NCBI GenBank assembly: GCA_027036755.1
Contig: JALWDV010000417.1
Coordinates: 1 to 37,268 of the forward strand
DNA from: Anaerolineae bacterium
GTDB lineage: Bacteria; Chloroflexota; Anaerolineae; J102
Length of the DNA stretch: 37,268 nucleotides
Reading direction: 5' to 3'
Numbering within the stretch: position 1 is the first letter of the stretch; every line of letters begins with the position of its first letter. The notes below the pieces were generated by a model that did not search any database, was not told the DNA's origin, and worked only from the letters and a program-made list of their open reading frames with translations. The position numbers and the translations under genes are program-made. Shown piece by piece: positions 22,619 to 23,784 of this stretch.

Positions 22619-23784
22619 GAGTGCTCGTCACCGGTTCCAGAGGGTTCATTGGTCGTAATCTGATCGCCCATCTTCAACATCTCGAAGATGTGGAGATTTT
22701 CGGCTATGATATCGACAACACGCCCGAGCAATTAGAGGCCTGGCTGGCCCAGGCAGATTTCGTTTATCATCTGGCGGGCGTGAATCGGCCCAAACGGGAG
22801 GAGGAGTTTTTCGAGGGGAATACGGATTTCACCCGGGCTATTTGCCAGCGTCTGGCCCGCCGGGCCGATCCTCCGCCCATGCTGCTTTCCTCCTCTATCC
22901 AGGCGGAGCTGGATAATCCGTACGGGCGCAGCAAGCGTCTGGCCGAAGAAGCGGTCATGGATTATGCCAGGGAGACGGGCGCCCGGGCCATCATCTACCG
23001 TCTCACCAACGTGTTCGGCAAGTGGAGCCGTCCCAATTACAACACGGTGGTGGCCACCTTCTGCTACAACATCGCCCACGACCTGCCCATCACCATCTCG
23101 AATCCCAACCATGAGGTCAGGCTGATTCATATCGATGATGTGGTGCGGGCGTTTGTTTCAGAACTCCAGAAGGACAGAGGGCCAGAAGGCCAGAAAGGCA
23201 GTGGACCAGAGAGGCGAGTCTTGTGGCGGACGGTGGAGCCGGAGTTTCCGGTGACGCTGGGGCGACTGGCGGAGCTGATTCGCTCTTTCCGGGCCATGCG
23301 CCAAACCCTGCTCACGCCCGATTTCAGCGATCCCTTCATCAAAAAGCTCTACGGGATGTACCTCACCTATCTGGATGAGGATGATTTCGCCTACGATCTG
23401 ACCCAGCGCTGCGATGAGCGCGGCTGCCTGGCCGAATTCATCAAATCGCAGCACTTCGGGCAGATTTTCGTCTCTCGCACAAAACCGGGCGTCACCCGCG
23501 GCAATCATTTCCACCACACCAAGGCGGAGAAGTTCTTGGTATTGGAGGGGGAGGCGGTGATTCGGTTTAGGAAAATCCAGAGCGACAGAGGCCAGAGGCC
23601 AGAGCGGCAGAGGTCAGAGGTGATCGAGTATCGGGTGTCGGGGAAGGAGTTTCGGGTGCTGGATATCCCGCCTGGATACACGCACAACATCGAAAACGTG
23701 GGCGACACCGACGTGATTACGCTTTTCTGGGCCAGCGAGATTTTCGATCCGGAAGCGCCGGATACGTATTGGGAAGAAGTCTGA
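22615..23784 (+). CDS. fnlB: UDP-2-acetamido-2,6-dideoxy-L-talose reductase/epimerase (FnlB / CapF family), with two low-complexity in-frame insertions
   Basis: 389 aa. It has an N-terminal SDR domain (MRVLVTGSRGFIGRNL, SSSIQA..NPYG.SK) and a C-terminal cupin domain (GNHFHHTKAEKFLVLEG...GYTHNIENVGDTD...FDPEAPDTY), as in CapF. It is about 20 aa longer than CapF as I recall it. Confidence 0.9.
   Translation: MRVLVTGSRGFIGRNLIAHLQHLEDVEIFGYDIDNTPEQLEAWLAQADFVYHLAGVNRPKREEEFFEGNTDFTRAICQRLARRADPPPMLLSSSIQAELDNPYGRSKRLAEEAVMDYARETGARAIIYRLTNVFGKWSRPNYNTVVATFCYNIAHDLPITISNPNHEVRLIHIDDVVRAFVSELQKDRGPEGQKGSGPERRVLWRTVEPEFPVTLGRLAELIRSFRAMRQTLLTPDFSDPFIKKLYGMYLTYLDEDDFAYDLTQRCDERGCLAEFIKSQHFGQIFVSRTKPGVTRGNHFHHTKAEKFLVLEGEAVIRFRKIQSDRGQRPERQRSEVIEYRVSGKEFRVLDIPPGYTHNIENVGDTDVITLFWASEIFDPEAPDTYWEEV

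Follow-up and report, generated by a model that had tools for sequence, protein, structure and literature searches.

How does a tandem repeat whose unit is not a multiple of three come to lie in frame at two places inside an enzyme gene, and again on both sides of the small gene next to it? The question is raised by a 37,268-nucleotide stretch of an Anaerolineae bacterium contig (JALWDV010000417.1; referred to below as the window), and in particular by its fnlB (capF) gene, which runs from 22615 to 23784 on the + strand. [quoted passage not shown] The explanation we favour, with a probability of about 0.58, is that local copying from the arrays of this IVP cassette, slippage, and filtering by reading frame and by position in loops together account for both fnlB segments.

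Two in-frame arrays in fnlB

Site 1 (23159..23214, + strand) consists of seven degenerate 8-nt units, CAGAACTC CAGAAGGA CAGAGGGC CAGAAGGC CAGAAAGG CAGTGGAC CAGAGAGG, with CAGAR cores spaced 8, 8, 8 and 8 nt, and it encodes residues ~183-200 (ELQKDRGPEGQKGSGPER); in the output of Tandem Repeats Finder the stretch 23166-23195 has a period of 8 and the stretch 23159-23215 one of 24. Site 2 (23577..23620, + strand) holds six 7/8-nt units, CCAGAGCGA CAGAGGC CAGAGGC CAGAGCGG CAGAGGT CAGAGG, with cores spaced 8, 7, 7, 8 and 7 nt (Tandem Repeats Finder period 7 x 6.0 at 23577-23620), and encodes residues ~322-335 (QSDRGQRPERQRSE). The initial annotation of this DNA had reported in-frame arrays at these two places, and the sequence there is exactly as it described, including the core spacing of site 2 and the translations from open reading frame (ORF) 22615-23784, which contains SELQKDRGPEGQKGSGPERRVLW at site 1 and KIQSDRGQRPERQRSEVIEY at site 2. 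It divided site 1 into six 8-nt units and a leader; the six units stand, and the leader, as CAGAACTC, can be counted as a seventh (23159-23214). The leader sequence GAACTCCAGA, with an expected count of 0.06, is present in direct orientation at both positions that had been given for it, 23161 and 23789, and a third, inverted copy at 24366-24375 had been missed.

The window has 23 occurrences of triple CAGAR cores at 7-8 nt spacing, every one of them on the + strand between 23159 and 23923; the figure for dinucleotide-preserving shuffles is 0.00. Compared with the array between fnlB and the IVP gene, site 1 matches the 8-mer half (23811-23863) with 87% identity over 53 nt, and site 2 the 7-mer half (23874-23917) with 73% over 44 nt. 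A 28-nt block of site 2, the odd unit CAGAGCGA included, is identical to part of the corresponding intergenic array of a relative (L002), and the units of the window differ from each other at 1-3 positions. Judged by these sequence matches, site 1, site 2 and the IVP-flanking arrays form a single local repeat family of 7/8-nt units with a CAGAR core.

The host gene is an intact, full-length homologue of the bifunctional SDR and cupin enzyme CapF/FnlB, with predicted 3-epimerase/4-reductase activity. Its 389-aa product aligns end to end with Cap5F (PDB 2zkl; phmmer E=4e-104, residues 1-389 vs 1-369) and matches the Pfam domains Epimerase (4e-22) and, over residues 266-385, Polysacc_synt_C (PF14667, 4e-44). 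The SDR motifs TGSRGFIGRN (GxxGxxG) and Y103-G-R-S-K107 (YxxxK) fall in columns that are invariant in 41 homologues, and the cupin residues H298, H300 and H357 are invariant in the homologue alignment. FnlB thus has SDR motifs, a cupin domain and a fnlA-fnlB-fnlC context in common with Staphylococcus aureus CapF (2ZKL, 3ST7) and the FnlB-type enzymes of Pseudomonas aeruginosa. S. aureus Cap5F has 369 aa, and the 20 extra residues of the window protein all come from the two repeat-encoded loops, net +10 at site 1 and, at site 2, a clean 10-residue insertion between RHVNDD and EIIEY; the earlier attribution of about 20 extra residues to the two sites was therefore right. CapF/FnlB is an enzyme under study as an antibacterial target; to call it essential, as had been done, is an overstatement for a surface-polysaccharide sugar pathway.

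Loop lengths were measured from an alignment of the FnlB genes of 80 reference genomes of many phyla, among the matches listed; these relatives, at 63% identity or less and mostly from other phyla, provide the background. The site 1 segment has 10-11 residues in 65 of the 80 (20 in the window), and the site 2 segment has 6 residues in 75 of the 80 (16 in the window). Both repeat segments are lineage-specific insertions in loops of near-constant length elsewhere. They are periodic at the nucleotide level in every relative whose DNA was read, and the alignment of homologues that had been proposed as a check finds them not to be conserved parts of FnlB.

The second proposed check, placement on the CapF fold, was done with an AlphaFold2 model (mean predicted local distance difference test score, pLDDT, of 82), for which the best Foldseek matches are 2zkl and 3st7 at E~1e-41. 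Both sites lie in loops. Site 1 follows directly on the last Rossmann helix (173-186), with pLDDT <50 at residues 194-196, and site 2 forms the loop of a cupin beta-hairpin between strands 313-320 and 336-342, with pLDDT <50 at 324-332. The suggestion that the arrays encode short surface loops, one in the linker behind the SDR domain and one in the cupin domain, therefore holds in that both are low-confidence loops of the model and site 2 is in the cupin, but site 1 is within the extended SDR region, where there is no true inter-domain linker. A repeat-like insertion in the same loops is seen, judged from protein, in an unrelated phylum: FnlB of Chthonomonas calidirosea (L033) reads LDTSDESDRSDPSDPSDSSDKRFR at site 1 and has 13 residues at site 2.

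The IVP cassette between fnlB and fnlC

The upstream, directly oriented array (23785..23924, + strand, about 137 nt) begins 1 nt past the fnlB stop and has 18 units, 8-mers and then 7-mers (23794-23924 by Tandem Repeats Finder; 18 CAGAR cores). It stops just ahead of the ribosome-binding site of the IVP gene, read from the sequence as a Shine-Dalgarno-like AAGGAGG (23931..23937, + strand) 9 nt 5′ of the GTG start. The IVP gene itself (23947..24339, + strand) encodes a 130-aa, bAvd-like four-helix-bundle protein (PF05635 at 2e-32, PF22296 at 1e-14). Directly 3′ of its stop is an inverted array, CCACTGA CATCTGA CATCTGA CCTCTGG AGTTCTC (24343..24377, - strand), the reverse complement of CAGA-core units, which holds the inverted GAACTCCAGA and ends 1 nt short of the fnlC ATG. 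There is a 35-nt pair with 77% complementarity, and among the inverted-repeat arms (I1-I4) is a 13/13 complementary match of 23788-23800 with 24364-24376, at the outer ends of the two arrays. This terminal stem closes the cassette in both the minimum free energy and the centroid RNA folds (z=-2.9).

The IVP gene, its direct upstream array and its inverted downstream array are thus most simply read as a stem-loop cassette, of the intervening sequence (IVS) type, placed between fnlB and fnlC. An Rfam scan gave no rRNA match within 22500-24600, so that the element is outside any rRNA gene, and at a permissive threshold it returned chance-level matches only (CsrC at 14 bits vs a gathering score of 61, and a miRNA). 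Since it adjoins fnlB and fnlC and has no rRNA match, the element is IVS-like and yet not an rRNA IVS. To our knowledge, IVP/S23p genes have no known function. All CAGAR arrays of the 37-kb window are confined to 23159-24377; the repeat had been taken for a spreading one, and its copies in the window are not dispersed but lie within 1.2 kb around a single IVP gene. The surrounding fnlA-fnlB-fnlC operon is complete and, by a scan of the window ORFs, sits in a surface-polysaccharide gene cluster. The first gene of this L-FucNAc trio is an fnlA/capE-like UDP-GlcNAc 4,6-dehydratase/5-epimerase gene (21581..22618, + strand; Pfam Polysacc_synt_2 at 2e-100 and Polysacc_syn_2C), and the last is an fnlC/capG-like UDP-GlcNAc 2-epimerase gene (24379..25497, + strand; Pfam Epimerase_2 at 4e-94).

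The order fnlB-IVP-fnlC is found also in the loci L001-L005, L086, L087, L220 and L221. Direct upstream and inverted downstream arrays surround the IVP gene in the window, in L001-L005 (FnlB 88-91% identical to that of the window), in L086 (61%) and in L087 (80%), and the upstream array has about 5 to 20 units in the syntenic relatives. IVP genes next to fnlB in one Planctomycetaceae and three Bacteroidales genomes are likewise flanked by inverted 7/8-nt arrays, made of units of their own. A metagenome scan with the window IVP protein returned 80 loci with 72-84% identity; among these relatives a heptamer array of the CAGAGGT type lies within 200 nt upstream in 54/73, an inverted array of the TCTGACC type lies immediately downstream in 56/77, and both flanks carry arrays in 40/70. 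Only 6 of the 80 adjoin fnl genes, which indicates that the cassette is dispersed. The two flanks pair with a median of -64.6 kcal/mol, compared with -43.3 kcal/mol in shuffled controls (72 loci), but the controls are mononucleotide shuffles, and purine-rich and pyrimidine-rich flanks still pair strongly when shuffled, so these duplex energies are weak evidence.

Several loci show the cassette in other states. L001 and L002 have an identical FnlB (P0003) and different IVP alleles (77% vs 88% identical to that of the window) and flanking arrays, and so the cassette has been swapped independently of its neighbours. In L168 (1701-1798), L165 (1802-1864) and L177 (3511-3607) a direct array abuts an inverted one without an intervening IVP gene. 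The hairpins are in frame within ORFs, namely in a carbamoyltransferase linker and in the upstream parts of ABC-transporter-like ORFs, and may represent the cassette in a form that has no gene, or as 'solo' remnants. In L088 the gap between fnlB and fnlC (4120-5052) holds a nucleotidyltransferase-like ORF and a HepT-like_2 gene, a toxin-antitoxin pair, in place of an IVP gene, and the same intergenic slot thus accepts different small cassettes.

Array variation and its explanation

Among close relatives both fnlB sites change by whole units, in steps of 15, 21 and 24 nt. Site 2 measures 30, 45 or 78 nt among relatives that are 88-91% identical, and within clusters of >=90% identity members differ by 7 aa (21 nt) at one site or the other. 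Both arrays are nearly lost in P0006, and in P0008 (locus L221) they are enlarged to 14 and 17 units. The coding arrays of L221 have grown as 15-nt super-units (one 8-mer plus one 7-mer) that keep the frame, unlike its intergenic array, which consists of plain 7-mer runs. The initial annotation had concluded from frame-preserving lengths that the repeat spreads under selection. The whole-unit, frame-preserving changes among relatives make this a fair reading, but survivorship accounts for part of the frame preservation seen in intact ORFs, and the growth of the coding arrays by 15-nt (8+7) super-units is more telling. L220 is identical to the window from ~23540 (given as about 140 nt upstream of site 2) through fnlC, and a divergent tract of ~380 bp swaps its site 1 for a P0008-like allele, so homologous recombination between strains also shuffles the arrays. 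Three candidates for phase-off fnlB alleles were rejected: P0035 has its start at an internal Met that is distant from both arrays, P0042 breaks off after residue 263 and is labelled partial in its source record, and P0037 is an unrelated fusion.

The units inside fnlB vary together with those around the IVP gene. L087, with an FnlB that is 80% and an IVP that is only 35% identical to the window's, has its own unit, GGTTCAAGGTTGGAA, which stands twice in site 1, three times in site 2 and again at the C-terminus, and which is also found ahead of the IVP gene and, inverted, downstream of it. The similarity of 6-mer spectra between coding and IVP-flank arrays is 0.6-0.74 in the window group and 0.44-0.82 in the L086 group, and the coding arrays of L087 score 0.52 with their own flanks and about 0 with all others. 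Arrays several kb away in the same contig have other units (CAGCAAC in a DegT gene of L086; CCACCGA, ACTGCCC and CGGAACC in L089), and array homogeneity is therefore local rather than genome-wide.

Genes other than fnlB have arrays of this kind. When viral contigs were scanned for the pattern of four CAGAGGN units, 50 loci emerged, and the in-frame arrays of these phage contigs lie in the central domain of the DnaN clamp, in the linker of a GT2-methyltransferase fusion, at three places in primase, and in the C-terminal tails of the large terminase and the portal protein. Related arrays are thus dispersed in phage contigs, while CAGAR arrays are local in the 37-kb window. Near IVP genes, in-frame arrays occur in the same loops of GT4 glycosyltransferases at three loci, with different units, and also in carbamoyltransferase linkers, a DUF218 protein and a WecG transferase. 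Where arrays lie in ORFs in reverse orientation, TGA is changed to CGA, giving TCCGACC units, which fits selection against stop codons. In L086, 30 units of CAGCAAC (7391-7601; 210 nt, 70 aa) lie in frame in a DegT/DnrJ/EryC1 aminotransferase gene and split its Pfam match in two. The window has another in-frame array at 32833-32904, where nine 8-nt units CGACCNNN (72 nt) lie in the N-terminal extension of an NTP_transf_5 ORF (32776-33933) just ahead of the Pfam domain; in L089 the orthologue of this gene has an ACTGCCC x8.7 array in front.

Under the explanation favoured here, template switching or gene conversion would carry array sequence ectopically, across a few hundred bases, into fnlB, and the places where it lands would be the two most insertion-tolerant surface loops of the enzyme. 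The arrays would then lengthen and shorten by replication slippage and be exchanged between strains by homologous recombination, while selection would purge frame breaks, stop codons and disturbance of the fold, so that what survives is limited to changes of 15 nt (7+8), 21 nt (3x7) and 24 nt (3x8), and to loops. The Gly/Pro/Arg/Glu/Gln/Ser peptides that the arrays encode are probably disordered passengers with no function of their own.

Several observations weigh against this account. FnlB arrays are present in L088, L089 and L007 without an adjacent IVP gene, and a search of the 50 phage contigs with CAGAGGN arrays found no IVP gene, so arrays can exist and enter genes without the cassette; the latter result led us to abandon the notion that an array is always accompanied by an IVP gene. 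Conversely, IVP cassettes stand beside fnlB in L042, L070, L029 and L031 and the gene has not been seeded. The replacement of a CCAGAGG array by an unrelated GGTTCAA array is impossible by homologous gene conversion and needs independent seeding or some other mechanism. The association of arrays with cassettes is strong in Chloroflexi-type loci and yet confounded with phylogeny. The comparison is one of consensus assemblies, in which slippage events and recombination intermediates are not directly seen, and the direction of copying is something that we infer, as the neutrality of the peptides is something that we assume. A more ambitious version would make IVP genes with inverted heptamer arrays a widespread mobile cassette of operons and rRNA genes that actively seeds its repeat into nearby coding sequence, possibly through binding of the IVP to its own arrays; variable loops of polysaccharide enzymes would be a by-product or an exploited product, and the arrays of gene and cassette would stay matched by interacting as RNA or in recombination. 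We consider this version possible but doubtful.

The matching arrays might instead have been selected for their complementarity. In an fnlA-fnlB-IVP-fnlC transcript the coding arrays would be alternative partners of the inverted array and could shift RNase III cuts or the sequestration of the fnlC start. Pairing with the downstream inverted array is in fact predicted at -39.1 and -41.0 kcal/mol for sites 1 and 2 of the window, vs -43.8 kcal/mol for the upstream array, and at -124 and -105 vs -116 in L086, all well under shuffled controls. Moreover, 14 nt of site 1 (23157-23170) are 93% complementary to 24366-24379, the fnlC ATG included, in L001 a 16-nt piece of site 1 shows full complementarity with the end of the inverted array, and IVS terminal stems are RNase III substrates (PMC4990558). 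Direct and inverted arrays also co-vary across lineages, but this is equally expected from their common descent; any array of the family pairs with any inverted array, and the energies carry little specific information. FnlB arrays are kept in L088, L089 and L007 with neither an IVP gene nor an inverted array nearby, translating ribosomes would unwind pairing in the coding region, and no Rfam family is matched, so that regulation of this kind is unlikely. A contingency locus, in which the gain or loss of one 7- or 8-nt unit shifts the fnlB frame and switches L-FucNAc or surface polysaccharide on and off, for instance in escape from phages, seems to us quite improbable. It would suit unit lengths that are not multiples of three, unit numbers that differ between strains, the location of fnlB in a surface-polysaccharide cluster, and the perfect, slippage-prone runs of some relatives (GTCAGGA x3 in L089, TCAGAAG in L086). 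Phase variation in Haemophilus is driven by 7-nt repeats (PMC8262952), as in H. influenzae hmw1A, where non-triplet tandems of strain-variable number are likewise in or near a surface-structure gene. Compared with such loci, the window units are degenerate (1-3 differences), which suppresses slippage, there is no on/off evidence, and all 14 close alleles and the best 120 homologues are in frame, in sources (protein databases, consensus assemblies) that favour intact genes. Growth by 15-nt in-frame super-units is the opposite of what a switch needs, and switching would have little point in the C-terminal tails and linkers of phage proteins, in which the same arrays are also present.

If the loops were selected for what they do in the protein, their charged, flexible Gly/Pro/Arg/Glu sequence might serve solubility, partner binding in a polysaccharide-synthesis complex, or diversification. 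The occupation of the same two loops in many lineages, down to about 58% identity, and the retention of arrays in cassette-free lineages are in keeping with this. However, the peptides are unconserved and vary with reading frame and unit type (QKDRGPEGQK, RSEVRGQRSE, GSRLEGSRL, SKFQVSGSK), within near-identical backbones they vary in length between almost nothing (P0006) and 43 aa (P0008), the nested relatives P0021, P0025, P0029 and P0034 have no arrays at all, and the model gives the repeat-encoded loops no structure; we therefore think a selected protein function very improbable. Lastly, variable loops next to a bAvd-like gene recall the targets of a diversity-generating retroelement (DGR): the IVP protein matches Pfam bAvd (1e-14), and among Pfam families PF05635 is the commonest neighbour of DGRs (PMC10053308). 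This reading was rejected, and we give it virtually no weight, since there is no reverse transcriptase among the 24 larger window ORFs scanned and no template/variable repeat pair, the only long direct repeats of the window being the arrays and unrelated duplications. The variation also consists of whole-unit indels, not of adenine-specific substitutions, and FnlB has neither a C-type lectin nor an Ig-like fold.

Known elements and other features of the window

The closest known relatives of the cassette are the 23S rRNA IVSs with an S23p/IVP ORF of Coxiella burnetii and Leptospira (PMC4990558), with which it has in common a PF05635 ORF and a stem of terminal inverted repeats. The Coxiella IVS has terminal inverted repeats that are cut by RNase III and GACAGAT heptamers of strain-variable number upstream of its S23p ORF (PMC4990558), and CAGA-core tandem heptamers just 5′ of the ORF, variable in number among strains, are thus a further likeness. 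The rRNA IVSs are regarded as selfish and horizontally spread (PMC4990558), and the window IVP gene is selfish-looking as well. They differ in location, in helix 45 or helix 25 of 23S rRNA as opposed to between two operon genes, and in architecture, since the window-type element has long tandem arrays, of up to about 25 units, for inverted repeats, and its repeat is also found in frame inside the neighbouring enzyme gene. Excision by RNase III is a feature of the Coxiella IVS and at most putative for the window cassette. IVP genes inserted between genes of cas operons have been described (PMC3936711).

Among heptamer repeats, the TAACTGA repeats of Beggiatoaceae, cyanobacteria and Bacteroidetes (MacGregor 2015, PMC4679880) are similar in being tandem 7-nt units that are strand-polar, mostly intergenic and just upstream of start codons, with occasional copies in ORFs at protein termini or in an RpoC-like variable surface loop, where stop codons dictate the orientation. 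They have a different unit and no reported link to IVP genes or inverted flanking arrays, and their in-ORF copies have 2-3 units, without evidence that different lineages have them in the same loops or that they change in step with an adjacent element. The STRR (cyanobacteria), GGGAATC (Xanthomonas) and GGGGAYT (Nostoc) heptamers (PMC4692102) are over-represented 7-nt tandems of variable number, transcribed and located between co-oriented ORFs; the window arrays resemble them in having 7-8-nt head-to-tail units far above chance and polymorphism of unit number. Those repeats, however, form G-quadruplexes and show under-representation in coding sequence, whereas the window-type repeats are purine-rich (CAGAR), are predicted to pair in duplexes with a partner array of inverted orientation, and are often found within coding regions.

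Over-represented bacterial heptamer repeats (PMC4692102, PMC4679880), occasional ORF copies in surface loops, and IVSs with heptamers and terminal stems are thus already known. In the literature we found no description of non-rRNA IVP genes with inverted heptamer arrays, nor of a link between them and repeats in neighbouring genes. What appears to be new is the combination of an IVS-like IVP cassette in an operon with inverted flanks made of long arrays, the same repeat in frame at two fixed loops of the adjacent enzyme, the co-variation of the units, and the wider pattern of arrays in loops, linkers and tails. Non-triplet repeats can evidently remodel enzyme surfaces, as the FnlB loops vary by 5-30 residues between strains with the fold unharmed, and for the poorly understood IVP/S23p element there is now a recognisable layout, with inverted heptamer arrays, that is widespread outside rRNA genes. 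Should the link between cassette and coding arrays be causal, it offers a handle on the role of the IVP protein and the movement of IVSs, and would also explain the odd low-complexity peptides (QRSEVRGQRSEV...) in Chloroflexi and phage proteomes that confuse annotation; if it is not, FnlB still amounts to a clean natural experiment in how far CapF/FnlB tolerates insertions.

The window has other features of its own. Two tandem HicB-like/HicA-like toxin-antitoxin pairs lie within the polysaccharide cluster at 15615-16803 (15615-15911 with 15911-16135, and 16334-16579 with 16582-16803), and their 3′ ends have in common a 61-nt repeat that is 92% identical. They stand just ahead of a block of low GC (17000-21500; 36-37% vs about 54% overall) with a flippase-like gene and three ORFs without Pfam match, directly upstream of fnlA; the cluster probably acquired this block, a serotype-specific one, by horizontal transfer. 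An insert of two ORFs at 28244-29202 (174 aa and 128 aa, assigned to no family) separates the Bac_transf gene from the DegT gene. The 41-nt direct repeat on its two sides (85% identical) is a duplication of the DegT 5′ end, and the insert looks like another small cassette with a target duplication. Finally, a gene for a 784-aa TPR-repeat protein (2683-5037) contains a 300-nt direct duplication (3837-4136 and 4413-4712; 99% identical, spacing 576 nt), which looks like a recent internal duplication of repeats.

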